NCBI GenBank assembly: GCA_951406725.2
Contig: OX597820.1
Coordinates: forward strand, 55,552,001 to 55,616,000
Reading direction: 5' to 3'
Origin: Octopus vulgaris
Lineage: Eukaryota
DNA: 64,000 bases
Positions 26,990-53,889 of this stretch are shown here, one piece after another. A program made the translations under genes and the position numbers. The notes beneath the pieces are model-generated. The model worked only from the letters and a program-made list of their open reading frames with translations, was not told where the DNA came from and did no database searches. Numbering within the stretch: position 1 is the stretch's first letter; the number at the start of each line of letters is the position of its first letter.

Positions 26990-27460
26990 TTGCTTGTAAT
27001 GTTACTCAGTGAAACTGGTGCATATTGGGAAAATATTGTGAATTAAGTTTACTCTGAAATGTTAATATGAATCGAATGAAACTAATTTTGCGTAAATCGG
27101 CAAAGTAGTTTCCAAGATATTAGAGATTCTCAGGGTATAAATACCCAAAATGGTGCATAATGGGAAAATATTCCAAAAATAATCTTCAACCTGAAAGGGA
27201 AGAAATTCTTATCCTTTTATTAGACAGTGAGTTGACAACGGAAAAAAAAAAAACGATTTTTTTGTTTTTACAATTTCTACTTTTGCTTTTCTTAAACACC
27301 ATATTTTAATCATTTACAAATATTTTTAAGCGAATGTGATTTCAAAAATGTAAGCTGTTTGTACAGTAAGTATGTATATTGTAGCTAAACAGGCAATATT
27401 TTATTATTTTCTAAAATTATTTTCAAGTGAATACTATTACAAAAATATTTTTTGGCATAC
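26990..27460. repeat. Inverted duplication, outer left block (pairs with 52920-53372)
   Basis: atgttactcag...cagggtataaatacccaaaa...gatttcaaaa is the reverse complement of 53372-52920, with many substitutions. Confidence 0.85.
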
Positions 27461-31070: not shown

Positions 31071-31909
31071 TTAATAAACAAAATGAACATGTTATATAAA
31101 AAGAGATGACATATAAAAGTAGGTGAAATAAAAGTACAGTGAGTGGATGATGGATAGTAAACATGATATTGCAGATGTAAAACTTAGTGAAATATAAGGA
31201 GAAATGAGAAATAAGATCTGAGATTGCTGGACTTCCCAGGTGAGATGACACATGGTTGAAACACATGTCAAAGAGCGATATAAAATGTCATAGTATTTCC
31301 AGGTCACAATGTCCACAATGTGTGTGGAAATACTGTTACAACTCCAAGGTTAAAAGTTTTGTCTCTCTGATATATATAAACCGCAACTTATTTCCCACAT
31401 TAAAAGGTAATGTTTGTAAATTCAGACAATAAACAGGTAATTAAATATCTGCTTTTCATCTTTTGTAGTTTAGAATGTTCGTGTGAAAATGTAGGGCGGA
31501 CACCGTACAGAAAATTAAGTAGAAATAATGTATTTCAAAGGAACAACACAGAAGTGGGGTTTGACATATGGATTAAAAAAAAAAGTTGGGAATGAATAGA
31601 AAGAAAAAAAAAAATCATATACAGAGAAAACTATATGTTTGTCTTAGATTTGCTCTCTTCTCTGAGAATTGAGGGGTTCACTTAGTAACTGTCTACTGAT
31701 TGACAACATAAAAGATGGGACATTTTAAAATGCAGACTATATATATATATCATCATCATCGTTTAACGTCTTTCCATGCTAGCATGGGTTAGATGATTTG
31801 ACTGAGGTCTGGCGAACCAGATGGTTGCACCAGACTCCAATCTGATCTGGCAGAGTTTCTACAGCTGGATGCCATTCCTAATGCCAACCATTCTGAGAGT
31901 GTAGTGGGT

Positions 31910-37175: not shown

Positions 37176-37434
37176 ATATATATATACTACTAATATAAAG
37201 ATAAAAGTTTATTAATGAATTTTATCAGTGGCCAGCATATGAAAAATATGTTTTAAAGTGAAAATTATAAATACAATTATAAATAAGGGCAAAAGAAAAT
37301 TTTCTTTGCCAATATGCTGAAAAATAGACACTAAATCATCTAACCACATAAAATATTCACTTATATTATTACATCATATGCCAAAATGAGGAAAGCAAGC
37401 TAACAGAAATTCATAAAAATATATCTATACAGAC

Positions 37435-38715
37435 ACACTCACATCTATTTAATGGTAACTGTTGGAAAAGGAGTATTCAGTACCATAGTATTTGGGTTGA
37501 GTCAGTTTCTTGCTACTCTGAGTTTCACTTGTGAGTGTAAAGGGTCTTTGGGCAAGTTATGACATAACTTGTGACAAAATAATATATGTATGTGTTTGTT
37601 TGTTTATGTGAGTAGATATGTGTCAATTAGTGTGTGTGTGTGCATTTATTTATATGTGTGTAGATGTATGTGATTTTTATTTATATATATATTTATGTTG
37701 CGAAAAGCTGTTTTTTTTGGAGGGCAGGGGTTAAACCAGCAATCAATACGAAACTAATATTTATTATTGTGGACAAAGAACTCAGTTCAGAAAAAATTTT
37801 TTTACATTTCAATACATTTCTATGGTGTCTGTTGGTTTATGTATTTTCCCAGCATAAACCTATTTGTGAGACTAAGTCAACCAATTGTTACTGATTTGTA
37901 TTTTTATTTTGTTGTCAACTACTTTTCTACTTCTATTGACTTTCACCCACCTAGACTAGAGCAGAAACACACACACACACATAAACACACACAGAGAGGC
38001 ACACACATACATAAGCATACATACTTGCTAAGAAAAGTGACAAGACAGAAAGAACTGTCACATTCCATATGCACAAACACACATACACACATATTTGAAG
38101 ACAGTCATCAAACAAGTCAAAGATAGAAATATATTTACACATTATATGAGAAAGAGAGAGAGAAAGAGAAGAAAGAAAAACACCCATAAACAATGCTGAT
38201 TGCACTATCTTTTTTTATAAAGAAGGGTGTGACTGAGAAAGATTTGTCTTTTCCAGTGCTTTTTTGTGAAATCAATTAGAAATGGAAAATAATGTTAATT
38301 AATAACTTTCATGTCACATGTTTGTCACGCTTTTATGCTTTGTAAGAAGGGAAAATACACTCTCTTAAAAAAAAAATTAAAGTGAGAAAAATGGAATAAT
38401 ATCGCCATGGCTCATTTGAGGTTTCGGTAATGGTCTAGGTGTCGCTGTGTTAAAAGGTTCACTTTGCAGCTGGTTTCTGGTTCAATCCCTCTAGGTGCCA
38501 CCTTAGACAGGTATTTTCTTTTAGAGTATTGGGGTGACCAAACCCCTATGTGTAGAATTTGAAAGACTGAAACTGTTTGGAAGCCTATCATATGGATTGT
38601 TCCCATTGTCAGTTGGTAGACTTGAACCCTCACCCAGTTTAGTAGCATTACATGGTCCTTGGATATTTTTAAGATAGTCCATTCTGAAGCATGCATTTTG
38701 ATCAGGCCCTCTCTC
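37435..38715. repeat. Inverted duplication, middle left block (pairs with 48486-50880)
   Basis: Mirror-image ORF peptides: VFSQHKPICETKST in 37664(+) and 49971(-); LNWVRVQ.YQLTMGTIHMIGF in 38412(-) and 49206(+). Confidence 0.92.
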
Positions 38716-40115: not shown

Positions 40116-40419
40116 TCACAATGACAGCAAGCTTCCTTCAATTTCCGTTTACCAAATTCATTCACAAGGCTTTGGTCAGCCTGAGGATGTAGTAGAAGAC
40201 ACTTGCCCAAGACGTCACACAGTAGGAACTGGACCTTAGAATACATGGCTGGAAAGCAAGCTCCTTAACCACACAACCATGCCTGTCCCTAGTCAAGCAT
40301 ATAGAACAAAAATGCTCATACGGATAGGATACTGTTCTTTCACAGATAACCATGCCAACAGACTCTATTAAACTTAAAATTTAAAGCCATGCATTTTCTG
40401 GCATTTGTTTTATTTTATT

Positions 40420-40930
40420 GAAACTACGAATATTCACAAATAAACACATTGGCTATGAAGTTAAGGTCCTGGGTCATTAATCATGATACTAAGTTAAGAT
40501 CTTTATGTCATCTATTTCATAAGGGTTTAAGGCAAATCCCATAACTTTAGTCGCTCCCATTTACTCAGTTTTTACTATGCCTTTGATTATGTTATCTGCA
40601 ATAAGAAGGAAATTTGTTTCAACAATGCAACAAGTTGTTTTAATATAGTAGTTTAGTTGGGGGAAATGAATGAAAACCATGAAAATGGTTGGTGCACCAG
40701 GTCTATTTCTATGTTTTTACTTTTTCATCTTTTATCTTTGAGTGGCCATGCTGGGGCACTGGCTTGAAAAATTTTAGTAGAATAAATTGACCCCAGGTCT
40801 TATTTTTTTAAGCCTGGTAAATTATTCTGTCAGTCTCTTTTGTTGAGCTGCTAAGTTACAGGGATGTAAACACACCAGCACTGGTTGTCAAGTGGAGGAG
40901 GTAGGGTCCAAAAACAGACACAAATACACA
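40420..40930. repeat. Inverted duplication, inner-middle left block (pairs with 47410-47935), including a shared SINE 3' half
   Basis: aaccatgaaaatggttggtgcaccaggtct is the reverse complement of agacctggtgcaccaaccattttcatggtt (~47638). The SINE abuts the same position in both arms. Confidence 0.88.
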
Positions 40931-44599: not shown

Positions 44600-44977
44600 A
44601 TATATGTGTGTATGCACGACAGGCTTCTTTCAGTTTCTATCAACCAAACACATTCACAAGGTTTTTGTTGGCCCAAGGCTATTATAGAAGACGCTTGTTC
44701 AAGGTGCCACGCAGTATGACTCAACCTGGAACCATGTGGTTGAGAAGCAATGTAATTCACATCTACACACAACTACAAAACAATGTTTCAGCTAAGCACT
44801 GTTCTTTTATGAATTGAAAATATAGAACAAACACAAGACTGAAAGTAAAGCGGGAACGTACAACTCGTTTTTCGACATGTGGATTGATGAGAGATAAACA
44901 AAAGTAAATAAAATGGAAATATATTGCAAGGGAGTGGCAGGAAAACGTGTTTAGACACGTGGATTAATGAAAGGTAA
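44600..44977. repeat. Inverted duplication, innermost left block (pairs with 46557-46915)
   Basis: Identical peptide YLSLIHVSKHVFLPLPCNIFPFYLLLFISHQSTCRKTSC in ORFs 44788(-) and 46549(+). Confidence 0.95.
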
Positions 44978-44984
44978 ACAGAAG

Positions 44985-45188
44985 TAAACGATACTACCCT
45001 CCTGAATCCCAGTTCAAAAGGGATATCCCCTAACTGTTCCAACTGTTGCAGCAGTGGCTCAAGAGCCAGCACATACAGAAGAGGTGACAGTGGGTAGCCC
45101 TGATGGACCAAACGTGCAATGTGAAATGATTCCAATAGGTAGCTGTTTACTTTGACCACCAAGCAGGTGCCACTGTGCATTGCAGCAA
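44985..45188 (-). pseudogene. L1/Tx1-like RT fragment
   Basis: VKVNSYLLESFHI.R.VHQGYPLSPLLYVLALEPLL resembles the L1-type QGCPLSPLL...LEPL motif. Confidence 0.75.
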
Positions 45189-45191
45189 ATG

Positions 45192-45238
<47 letters not shown>

Positions 45239-45277
45239 CCTTTCTACTATAGGTACAAGACCTGGATTTTTGTGGGG

Positions 45278-45414
45278 AGTTCAGTACAGCTCCAGAAAAC
45301 AGTGTTCTTAGGGACAGCTAGGATACTTAGAAGGGTTTTTGGCATGTAAGGTTACTTGTTGTTGACCGATGTTAGAAATTTTTTTTTCCAACAGTCTAAT
45401 CTGTTGTGTGTATA

Positions 45415-45458
<44 letters not shown>
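45278..45458 (+). mobile_element. 3' tip of an R4/Dong-like LINE with (AAT)n tail
   Basis: LQKTVFLGTARILRRVFGM* followed by a short UTR and (AAT)n. Confidence 0.65.
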
Positions 45459-45459
<1 letters not shown>

Positions 45460-46001
45460 GCCCTGATGCAGTACCAGGCAATGGCTCTCATGGCTTCTGA
45501 TCTTAACTAATTGGAAGTGTTATCATCTACATTGTTTTGTCTTGGTATAAAAGATGGGCTACAGCAAATATTCTGCTCAATACCACAGATTTACTTGTTA
45601 GTTGTTTGACTTTAACCAGTTGAGCACGTCCCTTAGTGGCTGATGATATGTGCATCTCTGATCATGAGCAGAAGTAGTGGTGAAGCATCATAGCCGTGTG
45701 TTGAGAGGGATTCTTGGAGGTTTGGATAATATGGGTGGTTAGTTCAACATCCTTAAACAATCTTTATTCAGGGACCTTTTGAGCGGGATGGGCTACTCGA
45801 CCAGAAGAAAATTCTAACTGGGCCCCACCTGCAAGGTCATGCACTGTTTATCTTGATATGAGATCACCATGTCGCACACATTTGGTTGTGATGCATGTGC
45901 CTGGTGTACCCTTATCAGACGGGTAGTCATGATGGGTATACTGGGCTTCATATATATTTTACCCCAGTGTCACTTTGATGGCATGCACTGCTCTCTCACT
46001 C
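45459..46001. mobile_element. Non-coding dispersed repeat embedded in (AAT)n
   Basis: Flanked by AAT arrays on both sides. An inverted partial copy lies at ~33575-33870 next to (ATT)n. Confidence 0.6.
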
Positions 46002-46035
<34 letters not shown>

Positions 46036-47989
46036 CCAATCCTTTCTACTATAGGCACAAGGCCTGAAATTTTTTGGGAGGAGTAAGCCAAGTACATTGA
46101 CCCCAGTGCTTCAATGGTACTTAATCTATTGACACCAAAAGGATGAAATGGAAAGTTGACCTCAACAGGTAAAATACAGCTAGGCATTTTGCCCAGTGTG
46201 AGAACGATTCTGCCGGCTCACCGCCTTAATAATAATAATAATAATAATAATGATGATGATGATGATGATGATAATAATACCCTTAGAGAGTATGTAGTAT
46301 ATATATACTACATATACTACATAATCTCAGTTAACCAAAGTTGTTCAACACATAGTTACAAACGTGAGATCCTAAGTGTATTTGGTAAGGAAAACACTCC
46401 TCCAAAATATATTCTTCCTCAGTCCTATCGTTAACCAGTTAATTATTCAGCAATGAACTCCTACAATTCTCACAGAGGGGAGTGAATCTAAGGAACCACT
46501 TATTTTTCATTCGTATCATGATTTTTCTTTGTTTACCTCCTTGCATTTATGTTTGCTTACCTTTCATTAATCCACGTGTCTAAACACGTTTTTCTGCCAC
46601 TCCCTTGCAATATATTTCCATTTTATTTACTTTTGTTTATCTCTCATCAATCCACATGTCGAAAAACGAGTTGTAGATTCCCGCTTTACTTTCGGTCTTG
46701 TGTTCGTCCTATATATTTTCAATTCATAAGAGAAAAGCGCTTAGCTGAAATATTGTTTTGTAGTTGTGTGTAGATGGGAATTATATTGCTTCTCAACCAC
46801 ATGGTTCCAGGTTGAGTCCCACTGCATAGCACCTTGGGCAAGTGTCTTTTACAATAACCTCAGGCCTACAAAATCCTTGTGAACGGATCTGGTAGACAGA
46901 AACTGAAAGAAGTCCATCATATATATATATATCATCATCGTCATCATCATTGTTAAACGTCCGTTTTCCATGCTTGCATGGGTTGGACGGTTCGACCGGG
47001 GTCTGCGAAAACAGGAGGCTGCATCAGGCTCCAGTCTATTTATATATATATGTGGTTTTATCTCTAATTTAATATATATATTTATACTGTAAAATTGGAT
47101 TTAATCCTAAATCTAATTTTTCCCTGTAAGTTTGGAATTACTCCCTAATATTATTATTATTATTTTATATATATATATATGTATACGTGAGTTGTCTAAG
47201 AGACCATAAGCCAGGGTAAAGATGGACTCGTATATCTGTTAATAGAGTAAGTATATCATCCGAAATATATAGAATTATATATCCATCATGGCTGATCTTA
47301 CCAATCGGTTTCATGCAAAGAATACAATGGAGTGTAAGATAACAATCTGATTATATAACCTTACGCTCATATAATTTCAGATAATATATGTGTGTGGGGG
47401 GGGAGTATCTATGTGTGTCTTTGTGTCTATGTTTGTCCACCATCCTCACCGTTTGGCAACAAGTGTTGGTGTGTTTACATCCCATAACTTAGCAGCATGG
47501 TAGAATAAGTACCATGGTTAAAAAAGTAAGTACTGGGGCTGATTCATCCAATTAAAATTCTTCAAGGTAAGTGCCCCAATATGGCTGCAGTCTAATGACT
47601 GAAACAAGTAAAAGATAAAAGATAGAAACATAGAAACAGACCTGGTGCACCAACCATTTTCATGGTTTGCGTTCAATTCCCACAGCCGAGCTACCATACT
47701 GAAATGACTTGTTGCCCTGTTGAACCAAATTTCCTTCCTAGTGCAGGTAACACAATCAAGGGCATAGTAAACAGTAAGTACATGGGAGTAGCTAAAGTTA
47801 TAGGGCTTTGTTTTGAACCCTTATGAAGTAGATGACATTAAAGTCTTAATTTAGTATTATATAGTTAATGGCCCAGGACTTTAACATCATAGCCAATATG
47901 CTTACTGTAAAGAACCATATTTTCAGAAACATCTTCCTCATGCTGATTATCATTATCATCATCATCACCATCACCATCATCATCTTTCT

Positions 47990-48221: not shown

Positions 48222-48560
48222 ATCATCATCATCATCATCATCATCATTCGTCATTTGACAAGTCCCTTGGGGGCTGTTGGAGTGCTGCAGCAATATAACG
48301 TATCTAGGGCAAGAAAGCCTAGCAGAGTCCACCCCTCTCAAGGCTATCTTCATTTAAAACCCATTTTCCATGCAGGTATGAGTCAAATGGTTTGATAGGA
48401 GCTGGCAAAGCCAGGAGCCGCACCAGGTTCCACTATTTGCTTTGGCATGGTTTCCACAGCTTAATGCCTTTTCTATAACTAACCACAGAGGACCTGATCA
48501 GAATGCCTGTATCAGAATAGACTCTGCTAAAGGTATTCAAGAACCATGTGATGCCATTAA

Positions 48561-49235
48561 CCCTTTAGCATTCAGTTTACTCAGACACATGTAATGCTTG
48601 TTAATTCAAATTGCTTTGAATTAATCATGCATTAGCTCATAGCCTTCAGATTTCAATGATATACTCTTTTACTTGTTTCAGTCATTTCACTGCAGCCATG
48701 CTGGAGCAATGCCTTTAGTCGAGCAAATCGATTCTAGGACTTAATTATTCTTTGGAAGTCTAGTATTTATTCTATTGGTCTCTTTTGCTGAACCGCTAAG
48801 TTATGGGGACGTAAACACACCACTATCAGTTGTCAAGTGATGTTGGGGGTACACATAATCATATATATAAACACACATGCATATATGTGTATATATATAT
48901 ATATATACATACATATATATATATACATATATATGACAGGCTTCTTTCAGTTTCCGTCTACCAAATCCACTCACAAGGCTTTGGTCGGCCCGAGGCTATA
49001 GTAGAAGACACTTGCCCAAGATGCCATGCAGTGGGACTGAACCCAGAACCATGTGGTTCGTAAGCAAGCTACTTACCACACAGCCACTCCTACGCCTATG
49101 ATTATTTACTTTAGAATGATATTTTACTTTTAGAATGACATTTTAGAGTAGTTGTGTGAGGCCTGATCTGGTCACTTTCAACACAAAACAGGTAGAGTAT
49201 TTAGGTTGAATATGGCTGGTTTGAATGCTAAAGAG
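48561..49235. mobile_element. piggyBac-type MITE with nested SINE (48663-49098)
   Basis: TTAA-ccctttagcattca...tgaatgctaaagag-TTAA. Another copy at 58437-58619. Confidence 0.85.
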
Positions 49236-50362
49236 TTAAACTGGGTGAGAGTTCAAATCTACCAACTGACAATGGGAACGATCCATATGATAGGCTTCGA
49301 AACAGTTACAGTCTTTCAAATTCTACATTCAGGTGTTTGGTCACCCCAATACAATAACAGAAGATATTTGTCTAAGGTGGCACCTAAAGGGATTGAACCA
49401 GAAACCACATAGCTGCAAAGTGAACCACTTAACAACACAGCAACACCTAGGCCATTATAGAAACCTCAAATGAACCATGGTGGTATAATTCTATATTTTT
49501 TTTTTCGTTTTTAAGATACCATATTTTTCCTTCTTACAAGCATAAAAGCATGACAAACACGTGACATGAAAGTTATCAAAATTCATTATTTCCCATTTTC
49601 GGTTGATTTCACAAAAAAGCACTGGAAAAAAACAAAATTTTCTCAGTCACACCCGCCTTTATAAAAGAGAGGGTGTAGTCAGCATTGTTTATGCGTGTTT
49701 TTCTTTCTTCTCTTTCTCTTTCTCATATAATGTGTAAGTATATTTTTATTTCTGACTTGTTTGATGACTGTCTTCAAATATGATAGTGTGTGTGTGTGTG
49801 TGTGTGTTTGTGCATATGGAACGTGAGAGTTCTTTCTGTCTTGTCATTTTTCTAAGCAAGTATGTATGCTTATGTATGTGTGTGGAAGTGTGTGTGTGCG
49901 TCCCCTCAGGTTTAGGCGGGTGAAAGACAATAGAAGTAGAAAAGTAGTAGACACAAAATAAAAGTACAATTCAGTAGCAACTGGTTGACTTAGTCTCACA
50001 TATAGGTTTATGCTGGGAAAATACATGAACCAATGGAGACCACAGAAATATTTTTGAATGTACAAAGACTTTTCTAAACTCTTCTCCAAGTCTTTTCATC
50101 ACACTAATAAATATTAGTTTTATATTGATTGCTGATTTAACAAAAAAAATCTCAGCTTTTCTCATCATAAATATATATAGATAACAAAATCACACACGTA
50201 CATAAACACACATGTACACACATACAAATAGAATGAAGACACACATGCACACATACTATTTTACCACAAATTATGTCATAACTTGCTGAAGACCCAGTTC
50301 ACCCACATAAAATACTTATTTATCTCTACTATGATACTGAATACTAATTTTTCCAACATCTA

Positions 50363-50855
50363 CAGTGATCCCTCGCTACTTTGCGGTTCAACTATTGCGG
50401 ATTCACAACTTCGCGGATTTTAAAAATATATATGAACACCTAAAATTTTTTATTAAATCCATTAAAATATTAATAATAAATATTATTTCCTAGTCTAGGA
50501 ACGACGAAACAAGCTTAAAATAGCAAAAAAGCATATACAGGGATATTTGAACTTAACACGGGCTGTGATTGGTGCAATGGAGAGAGATGACGAATCTCAG
50601 CTTTCTGTTTTGTAATCTGGCCAGTGTAACAGTAACAATCTTTATTTTTTAAAATCTAAAGTATTATTGCTTAACAGTTGTCCTTGTTATTAATAGACTA
50701 CTGTAATAGGTGGGTTGTTAACAGTACAGGGAGGGTTTTAAAAGTCCAAATACATGTTAAATAAAAACTGTAAATATGGTGTCCCCACTTCGTGGAAATT
50801 CAGTTATTGTGGCCAGTCTCGGAACCAATCTACCACGATAAACGAGGGATCACTG
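50363..50855. mobile_element. pogo/Tigger-type MITE
   Basis: TA-cagtgatccctcg...cgagggatcactg-TA. Confidence 0.88.
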
Positions 50856-51477
50856 TAAACTAAACAGATGTGTACATGTGTGTATATATATCTTCTCTTA
50901 TTTGTTTCAGTCACCGCTTTAAAGGGTGTTAGCCGAAGAAATTGACCCCAGGACATATTCTTTGTAAGCTTAGTATTTATTCTATCGGTCTCTCTTGCTG
51001 AACTGCTAAGTTACGGGGACATAAACACACCCATATCAGCTGTTAAGTGATGGTAGGGCAAGCACAAACTCAAACCTGAATATATATATATGATGAACTT
51101 CTTCCAGTTTCTGTCAACCAAATCCACTCACAAGGCTTTGGTCGGCCCAAGGCTATAGGAGAAGATACTTGCCCAAGGTGCCAAGCAGGTGGGACTGGAC
51201 CTGAAACCATGTAGTTGGGAAGCAAGCTTCTTACCACACAGCCACAGAATAATAAAAAGAAAGTTCTTGATACAGTATTATATTTATTTGAAATAATGAG
51301 TAGAGATGATTTTTTGTGGGGGATAATTTTTATTTTAACGTTATTAATAATAATGTTTACAGTGAGTTACTCTGATATGAGCTTTGAGCTTTAAGTAGCT
51401 ATTTTCAAACTGAAAAATGTGTTTTACTAGTTGCTTGAATAGTGAAAGATATTTTTCTTACAAGTATACATGAAGAA

Positions 51478-51901: not shown

Positions 51902-53889
51902 TACACACACACACACACATATATGTTGTGAAATATATTGAGTTTTAAACAAGTGCTTACTTGTCATACCTTCTAAAAGCACATAAAAAAGAATTTACAT
52001 AAAAATTCAGATATATATATATCTCAAAAGAGACCGATTGAAGACTACTGGTCAAATGACCTTACCTAAATTAACTCTCCCACTCCCTTATCTTTTTATT
52101 CCTTTTATTCTTTTCTATTTTCTTTTTTATATTCTTAATTTCTCTCCACATTTATATTCTCCACTCTTACTGTGCTCTCTACATATTTTGATCGAATCTT
52201 CTGCCTGTTAACAAGTACCTCCTTGCAACCATGTATACTTTCATTTAATCAAGACACCCTTGGCCTGACAAGCAGCCTGCGGTATACATCTTGCTTGAAT
52301 ATTTACCACTTCTGAGGTTCCACTTGCTATGAAACATATGTAACTCGGATCTTATCAACTGCATTTCCTTAACTCTTGCATTCTTATTTGCATACCCAGC
52401 AACCCTAGTTGCCTACTGGGAATTATAAAAAGAATTTTTTTCAGCTTATTGTACTTCAATATGAAAAAATCACAACCTTCCGCCTCAATAAATCACTATT
52501 ATTCCTAAAAGTTGTTTTTCATATCTACTATGGATTGCTTGAAGCTAACTTTCTTCCTACACCTTGATCCTGGGATCTTACATTTATATATATACTAGAC
52601 TACTGATGACCTGTTGGGTCACCAGGAAAGTCTGAGTTTTGTTTTGTGGGTCCTTTTTTCTTTTCCAGGTTATTTTGCATGCTTAGAACGAATGTGACAT
52701 AGAAATCACACATCAGTGGCTCCTTTACCCAGAAAAGGAAAGATTTGGCTGCTATTTCTTGCACACTTTGCTACTACATAATGGGTATTTCAAGTCCTTT
52801 ATCGCAAATAGCGGTTACGTGGTAACAGGGCATGCTAGAAATAGCAACCAAATCTTTCAAAATGAGATACATTGAATGTACTAAAAAAAAACCTATGGAA
52901 AAAAATTTCACACCAAGGTTACGAAAATTTTCGTAACGGTATTCATTTGAAAATAAATTTAAAAGATATTAAAATATTGTCAGTTGAAAGAAAGCTAAAA
53001 TATAAAAACTTTTTGTACAAACAACTTACAGTTTTGAAATCACATTTACTTAAAAATATTTCTCAATGATTAAAATATTGTGCTTAACAAAAGTGAAAAT
53101 AGAAACTGTAAAAAATTTGTATTGTTTCGTTGTCAAGTCAGTCTAACTGAAAGATAAGAATCACTTCCTTTTTAGGATTAAGTTAATTTCAGAGACTTTT
53201 CCCTTTATGCACAGTTTTGGGTATTTATACCCTGAAAACCCTTAATATTTTTACAACCACTTATCTGATTTATGTGAAATTTGTTTCATTCCATTTGTAT
53301 TTACATTTTAGGGGAACTTAATTCATAGTATTTTCCCATTATGTGCCAATTTGGCTGAGTAACATTGCAAGTTTAGTCATTCGACTGTGACCATGCTGGA
53401 GCACTGCCTTTTAGTCAAAGAAACCAACCCCTGGACTTATTCTTTGTAAGCCTCATGCTTATTATATCAGTCCCTTCTGATATAATGGCCACAGTTGAAT
53501 GACTGCTACAGTCATTTAACTGCAGCCATGCTGGAGCACTGCCTTTAGTCGAACAAATCCACACCAGGACTTATTTTTTGTAAGCCTAGTACTTATTCCA
53601 TCATTCTCTTTTGCTGAACTGTTAAGTTACAGGGACGTAAACAGACCAACATGAGTTGTCAAGCAATGGTTGGGGGCGGGGACAAACACAGACAGACAAA
53701 TACATACACATATAACAGGCTTCTTTCAGTTTCCATCTACGAAAACCACTCACAAGGCTTCAGTCGGCCCAAGGCTATAGTAGAAGACACTTGCCCAAGG
53801 TCCCAGGCAGTGCGACTGAACCCAGAACCATGTGGTTGGGAAGCAAGCTTCTTACCACACAGCAACTCCTGTGCCTATATATATATATA

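Follow-up and report, generated by a model that had tools for sequence, protein, structure and literature searches.

Near-identical inner ends of an inverted duplication in an octopus SRBD1 intron, most likely produced by non-allelic gene conversion

The window considered here, a stretch of 64,000 nucleotides of Octopus vulgaris DNA (assembly GCA_951406725.2, contig OX597820.1, positions 55,552,001 to 55,616,000), contains an inverted duplication within intron 15 of the gene SRBD1, and the inner ends of its two arms are almost the same over 119 bp. The left copy of this core (44859-44977, plus strand; plain positions are those of the window) and the reverse complement of the right copy (46557-46675, minus strand) agree at 118 of 119 positions, with the lone mismatch at 44941 (G) and 46593. 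The near-identity most likely stems from non-allelic gene conversion, by which sequence of one arm would have replaced that of the other within an old inverted duplication; the last such tract would date from about the time when the sampled animals diverged. The initial annotation had offered either arm-to-arm conversion or selection on an enhancer, a non-coding exon or an RNA stem. Conversion is favored because the divergence of the arms is layered, because their identity jumps partway through a presumably neutral repeat that both arms carry and because variation in the core is not depleted, whereas strong selection is disfavored by the variants found in the core, the lack of a splice acceptor and the lack of a bias toward G-U pairs.

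The core with its single difference was recovered as it had been described, and so was its retention of CpG dinucleotides: each copy holds 4 of them, at observed/expected ratios of 1.44 and 1.49 vs. 0.36 for the window. Mismatches amount to 1/119 in the core vs. 15/159 in the outer flank beside it (Fisher p 0.0015). When 10% divergence was simulated, a 119-bp window with no more than one mismatch arose with p 0.0009-0.007, permutation inside 44700-44977 gave p 0.018 for a core-like stretch, and the longest other one-event stretch anywhere in the arms measures 45 bp. Thus, the near-identity exceeds chance, though by no huge margin. A genome search with 44859-44990 yielded two candidates, both of which matched and both of which lie inside the window (match counts across the genome, here and below, are lower bounds). 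The core had been described as lying at the center of a palindrome; its copies sit at the inner ends of the arms, with 1,579 bp of non-palindromic spacer between them. Likewise, the adjacent arm sequence had been called clearly diverged, which is only relatively true, since the outer flank (44700-44858) is still about 90% identical to its partner; toward the spacer, no diverged arm follows, as the left one ends at a breakpoint against a fragment of a long interspersed nuclear element (LINE) from about 44989.

The host gene was recognized by an exon at 59.4 kb: a 56-aa query, aligned over 96% of its length, matches an Octopus sinensis protein named SRBD1 with 100% identity. SRBD1 is a minus-strand gene of 18 exons, and mapping of the exons of the gene model places both core copies in intron 15 (23331-55372, minus strand; 32,044 bp, phase 2). 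SRBD1 is continuous across this intron and no exon is missing between 55373 and 23331, which rules out the core as a coding exon. The gene spans C7:55420947-55649600; intron 15, with 32 kb, and intron 16, with 150,657 bp, stand beside 15 other introns of 0.8-9 kb.

The arms of the inverted duplication occupy 37.4-45.0 kb and 46.5-50.9 kb, and after masking they resolve into three collinear inverted blocks, namely B (37418-38712 / 48487-50894), C (40412-40905 / 47439-47932) and D (44618-44988 / 46546-46918), with the left members on the plus strand and the right partners, as given by the arm alignment, on the minus strand. From outside to inside, the divergence of the arms runs from 12% in block B, whose right partner is split by later insertions, through 20% in block C, 23% in the distal part of a shared repeat resembling a short interspersed nuclear element (SINE) and 9% in the outer flank to 0.8% in the core. 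Hence, the paralogues are older than the tract, with 9-23% divergence elsewhere in the arms vs. 0.8% in the core. Block C differs at 95 of 477 positions and block B at 105 of 875 (in 37730-38640; B vs. C, Fisher p 1e-4). The unique part of block C and each of two probes from block B have two matches in the genome, and probes from both blocks and from the right inner flank mark a single locus.

A further step lies within block D. The distal part of the SINE-like repeat (44618-44699, plus strand), of which 49 other copies occur in 264 kb, is 77% identical to 46837-46918, with 19 mismatches in 82 positions, and the proximal part, which forms the first 52 bp of the outer flank (44700-44858, plus strand; partner 46676-46836, minus strand), has 4 mismatches in 52 (p 0.033, for a comparison picked after the data had been viewed). 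The remainder of this flank is unique and differs at 11 of 107 positions. In the distal part, the identity between the arms (0.79) resembles that to other copies (mean 0.77, maximum 0.83; 40 copies), and in the proximal part it reaches 0.92 vs. a mean of 0.79 and a maximum of 0.90 (37 copies). Such a step inside a presumably neutral repeat copy ignores functional boundaries and would be the expected trace of conversion tracts of differing ages, for which it gives modest support.

According to the mechanism that we propose, the locus began with the inverted duplication of a segment measuring at least 7.5 kb, the oldest layers of which would now be about 20-23% diverged. Later insertions would have fragmented the arms, and the LINE fragment would have cut the left arm at 44989. 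Patches would then have been re-homogenized at differing times, giving about 12% divergence in block B, about 9-10% in the outer flank and about 1-3% in the core; for each patch, a break in one arm may have been mended by copying from the other, which lies 1.6 kb off. The latest tract, 119 to about 135 bp long, would date to roughly the time when the sampled animals diverged; the two core copies would have mutated independently thereafter, CpGs first.

Variation among other animals bears directly on this proposal. The words of the core occur in 12 sequencing runs from 6 studies with 4 organism labels, none of them recorded as RNA. Seven runs from six samples were examined (X5 and X6 come from the same sample), none of which differs from the window, even in the flanks, by more than about 2%; the independence of X11, which matches the window throughout, or of X3 from it is doubtful. 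In X3 and X5, four separate flank contigs are accompanied by one merged core contig of 118-119 nt at raised, about double depth (X5: 102.6 vs. 33-62), a contig of X7 spans the left core copy and one of X4 spans the right. Taken together, these contigs demonstrate that the duplication is real, and an artefact of assembly or polishing is ruled out by the presence of two copies in the runs of other animals.

Variants of the left core copy were found at 44874 (G>A) and 44968 (T>C) in X1 and at 44947 (G>A) in X7, and those of the right copy at 46570 (A>T) in X1 and X4 and at 46557 (T>C), the last base of the core, in X5. The unique flanks vary at 44849, 44857, 46438 and 46700 and in two small indels. 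This amounts to at least 5 variant sites in 238 bp of core vs. at least 4 in 495 bp of unique flank (Fisher p 0.16), so that the core lacks the depletion relative to its neighbors that would mark a conserved element and has the normal mutation that would follow a conversion event. To explain the drop from 10 to 1% arm divergence, selection would have to reduce the rate to one-tenth; if the core mutated at one-tenth of the flank rate, at least 5 of 9 sites in the core would have p 2e-5, and at 0.3 of this rate p 0.003. Dropping the edge site 46557 leaves 4 of 8 sites in the core (p 3e-4 at one-tenth), and when the LINE piece, which is more variable (5 letters in X7 and 1 in X1), is counted as flank, the values for the two rates become p 1.5e-4 and p 0.014. 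The core variation thus argues against strong constraint; weak selection depletes polymorphism less than divergence. Two of the variants, at 44874 and 44947, destroy CpGs. The arm difference at 44941 is common to the window, X7 and, judging by contig ends, probably X1. The core copies differ between the arms at one position in the window, probably four in X1 and two between the left copy of X7 and the right copy of the window, which is of the same order as the differences between animals.

Several observations weigh against gene conversion as the source of the near-identity. Among the variants listed for the six samples, no change is common to both arms of one animal; since each sits on one arm only, conversion is not shown to be ongoing. 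No sampled animal is more than about 2% away from the window, which leaves no outgroup that predates the tract. The merged contigs of X3 and X5 can hide differences, which makes the variant counts lower bounds on both sides, and the comparison within the repeat was, as stated, chosen post hoc. The core is not enriched in GC (0.345 vs. 0.336 in the flank; few sites). In addition, two features hint at function: a word joining an E-box to GGATTA is kept in five homologous copies, including an old third paralogue, and the identity of the arms ends at position +4 of a good donor-like splice site.

The first of these hints leads to the reading that survives best beside conversion, although it is unlikely. 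It holds that both copies are a duplicated enhancer, composed of E-box, K50 homeodomain and Forkhead sites and kept by purifying selection, with SRBD1 itself or a nested gene resembling PKI, about 120 kb off, as target. The words look like consensus sites of K50 homeodomain, Forkhead and basic helix-loop-helix factors, their putative binders. The duplicated motif noted in the initial annotation is present in both copies, at 44866-44909 (CATGTG GATTG ... ATAAACA) and 44946-44989 (CACGTG GATTA ... GTAAACA), both on the plus strand and identical at 36 of 44 positions; in the right arm, the second copy reads GTAAGCA and fails the Forkhead-like consensus RTAAAYA. The motif is doubled because of an old tandem duplication of about 80 bp, of which the first copy represents the first unit, and the right arm retains more of the second unit than the left. 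A third, older and degraded paralogue at 31527-31680 (plus strand) matches the second motif and the right inner flank (46454-46616) weakly, with 67% identity in a stretch of 55 bp and 77% in one of 78 bp, and retains GACATATGGATTA.

For an enhancer speaks that CAYRTGGATTR occurs six times in 264 kb, all of them at this locus, with 1.3 expected, and that it survives in the third paralogue at 67-77% identity. Nevertheless, five of these six go back to a single ancestral word, and the alignment in which they are counted is itself anchored by such matches. Taken one by one, the words are common, at 0.15 (E-boxes), 0.09 (GGATTR) and 0.22 (RTAAAYA) per 119 bp, and one of each was found in 19 of 9,666 windows, two of each in none. 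The full composite was hit 13 times in the genome, including 4 times at this locus, vs. about 16 expected from base composition, with a single hit for the reversed control. Of the 8 differences between the two motifs, 3 lie in the named sites, vs. 3.3 expected for sites that make up 18 of the 44 positions, and these 3 were absorbed by the degenerate letters of the earlier consensus. Among the animals, X1 and X4, two of the five covering samples, have GGAATA in place of GGATTA on the right arm (46570 A>T), and variation in the core is, as set out above, undepleted. The named sites are accordingly spared neither between the motifs nor among the animals; they are spared in the third paralogue. 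Moreover, real enhancers rarely keep every base of their spacers. The observed/expected CpG ratio of 1.4-1.5 in the core would suit an enhancer, as would the size of introns 15 and 16 (32 and 151 kb vs. 0.8-9 kb for the other 15) and the intronic regulatory elements reported for coleoids (PMC13652810), in a paper whose main text makes no mention of SRBD1. An old enhancer beneath a conversion patch would be compatible with copying as the cause of the near-identity, and the module may be functional.

Concerning possible targets, a crude screen of open reading frames (ORFs; the best 110 of 394, with 3 scanned against Pfam) revealed no developmental transcription factor within 100 kb on either side of the SRBD1 region. 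A link to the Six gene cluster, which we presume to neighbor SRBD1 in vertebrates, was discarded, as the three Six-domain hits lie on another contig. Intron 16 contains a single-exon frame of 246 aa on the minus strand (C7:55474361-55475098; L014:2361-3098) with the word RRNALHD, which we take to resemble the pseudosubstrate of protein kinase A inhibitors; the frame lies in a CpG-rich stretch, and upstream stand TGACGTCA and a reversed CCAAT word. The Pfam family PKI was hit at E 0.058, below its cut-off, and the exact sequence was not in the protein collection searched. This nested frame is a candidate for a cAMP-induced feedback inhibitor inside a housekeeping gene. Besides, exon-sized frames at L044:9149-9289 and L045:5564-5791, about 90 kb past the 3' end of SRBD1 and on the opposite strand, presumably resemble CDC16/APC6, without confirmation by Pfam.

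The second hint concerns RNA. On the sense strand of SRBD1, the right core copy ends in a donor-like AAG/GTAAGC (46555-46563, minus strand; the slash marks the splice position), and the identity of the arms stops at its +4. This end of the core had been pointed out before and is indeed present: with a matrix from the 17 SRBD1 donors, which themselves range from 3.1 to 13.3 bits, it scores 7.8 bits on the right arm and 4.7 on the left. It is quite improbable that the arms are kept complementary for pairing in the SRBD1 pre-mRNA, such that the 119-bp duplex masks a cryptic 5' splice site (46561) or is edited by ADAR as a substrate. Both arms lie in one intron and thus in one pre-mRNA, in which they are predicted to pair at -200.8 kcal/mol for the core and -373 kcal/mol for about 250 bp, and AAG/GTAAG occurs only this once on the sense strand of intron 15. 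Furthermore, all 4 core transitions among the animals would give G-U rather than A-C on the sense strand, a chance of 1 in 16. Every inverted copy can pair, so that pairing is a consequence of the duplication and no evidence of selection, and the arm differences on the sense strand comprise 72 G-U and 85 A-C (p 0.34; 17:10 in block D, p 0.25), i.e., no excess of G-U. At least 10 of 1,897 intronic GT sites outscore the donor at 46561, its +4 is altered in X5 and no compensatory change was seen. The best acceptor within 400 bp reaches 4.1 bits, below all 17 real ones (5.6-14.9 bits, by a small matrix trained on this gene), and the loop holds no exon; hence, a cryptic exon with both splice sites, as in a poison exon, is not found. 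The hints from both sides can be joined in the idea of an ancient enhancer of E-box and K50 homeodomain sites, multiplied to five copies through tandem and inverted duplication within the giant SRBD1 introns, whose two facing copies are refreshed by gene conversion and also form a 119-bp duplex that buries a cryptic 5' splice site. One element would then be a long-range enhancer, with the nested PKI-like gene as candidate target, and a safeguard of splicing; as a whole, this would be a long shot.

Further readings fare worse. A crossover between the arms, which would have inverted the 1.6-kb spacer and left the tract behind as its conversion footprint, is very improbable. The tract does abut the spacer, and one contig of X6 links the right inner flank to a left-type outer flank; against this, X5 of the same sample has the four separate flank contigs and the merged core, so that the join in X6 is regarded as an artefact of the assembler and an inversion of the spacer is unsupported. 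Contigs from 31-mers cannot phase a 119-bp repeat, and crossovers are rare beside conversions in a human Y palindrome (PMC3723533). Chance, with the core as the lucky tail of a block diverged by 10%, is to be rated lower still: it can draw on the permutation value of 0.018 inside 44700-44977 and on the many windows scanned, and is opposed by the simulated 0.0009-0.007 and by the next longest one-event stretch of just 45 bp. Least likely of all are two non-coding transcripts that face inward and have the core as their first exon, for which the donor-like end of the core and an AT-rich, TATA-like word about 40 bp upstream would speak, and against which stand the weak left donor (4.7 bits) running into the LINE fragment, the missing donor in the third paralogue, the lack of any Rfam match in the window and the lack of a stable fold in the core itself.

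Other explanations were rejected outright. A young dispersed repeat is ruled out, as the core was found twice in the genome, in 2 of 2 candidates, and blocks B and C and the right inner flank are also single-locus. The terminal inverted repeat of a dispersed repeat or miniature inverted-repeat transposable element is dismissed as well, as the outer flanks are themselves 90% homologous and the core produced two matches, both here. A microRNA or other structured RNA finds no Rfam match at gathering scores in the window, no stable fold of the core alone and no conserved hairpin in either arm. A palindrome of the Y/X type, with arms of several kb at >99% identity, does not exist here.

Concerning the surroundings of the core, the LINE fragment that truncates the left arm and forms the inner edge of homology (44989-45169, minus strand) encodes part of a reverse transcriptase and matches a long LINE ORF 100 kb away at 66% on the DNA level; the protein alignment extends to about 44989, and Pfam RVT_1 was hit at E 0.003, under the curated cut-off. 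Beyond the third copy, 464 kb contained no further paralogue of the arms except one 48-bp match at 73%. The pair 27049-27449 / 52924-53316, tried as an outer arm block, turned out to be an AT-rich dispersed repeat of about 400 bp with 1209 genome candidates and was removed from the palindrome. In both arms of block B (38150-38260, minus strand; 49620-49745, plus strand), an outward-facing TATAAAA is followed by a pyrimidine-rich tract, to which the right arm adds ATGT/GTAAGT at 49733, and the pair resembles divergent promoters. The arms of block B share no common reading frame in an alignment judged by eye, and its conservation is no higher than that of its internal repeat. At 50365-50857, an element of 490 bp with short terminal inverted repeats (CAGTGATCCCTCG) has inserted into a TA of the right arm and has no counterpart in the left.

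The same 264 kb contain five other inverted pairs of 77-186 bp with 96-100% identity, less than 2 kb apart and mostly related to repeats, one of which is similarly graded. Two fold-back elements (C7, about 55431500-55432270, and 55511280-55511840) have arms of 260-270 bp at 96-99% identity, and the former is graded, with 7 mismatches in the outer 120 bp and none in the next 110. A perfect inverted repeat of 123 bp surrounds a frame at C7:55464474-55466592, for which Pfam gave no family and which we take to resemble a GIY-YIG endonuclease of the Penelope type.

The core pair is real, belongs to a single locus and is most likely explained by a familiar DNA repair process. If conversion is the right explanation, it represents an ordinary conversion patch and a caution that near-identity between paralogues is not conservation; at the same time it would be a small, datable case of non-allelic conversion in a cephalopod. 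In the literature searched, an incomplete library, no paper was found on gene conversion in octopus or cephalopods, nor on SRBD1 together with octopus introns or genomic regulatory blocks. If instead an enhancer pair evolving in concert with a built-in RNA safeguard were true, it would be of interest to specialists in cephalopod regulation and RNA editing.

The locus can be placed among known systems. In human non-allelic gene conversion, tracts average 250 bp and the process slows as copies diverge (Harpak et al., 10.1101/135152). The tract length of the core fits this mean, and the octopus pair is likewise made of intronic paralogues with a short tract of high identity, on the order of 100-250 bp, and with conversion that would persist only patchwise as the copies diverge (10.1101/135152). 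In contrast to those duplicates, the octopus ones are non-genic, inverted and 1.6 kb apart in one intron, and a GC bias would be undetectable in such a short tract. The human Y palindrome P6 (PMC3723533) shares the inverted arms about a spacer and their homogenization by copying. Still, its identity of >99.9% extends over tens of kb with tracts of kb length, whereas identity in the octopus arms is 77-90% and attains 99% over no more than 119 bp. Long inverted repeats between paralogue pairs in Caenorhabditis, for which conversion or selection on structure was proposed (PMC1803023), similarly combine an old duplication with arms that stay matched; there, the structure was kept for about 100 million years while the sequence changed, whereas no flanking paralogous genes were found at the octopus locus. 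Finally, the complementary pairs at the poison exons of BRD2 and BRD3 (PMC10789245) resemble the octopus case in their intronic complementarity within one pre-mRNA near a splice-site-like word, but the octopus pair has neither a conserved exon nor a good acceptor and is instead a long duplicated copy that varies freely among close relatives.

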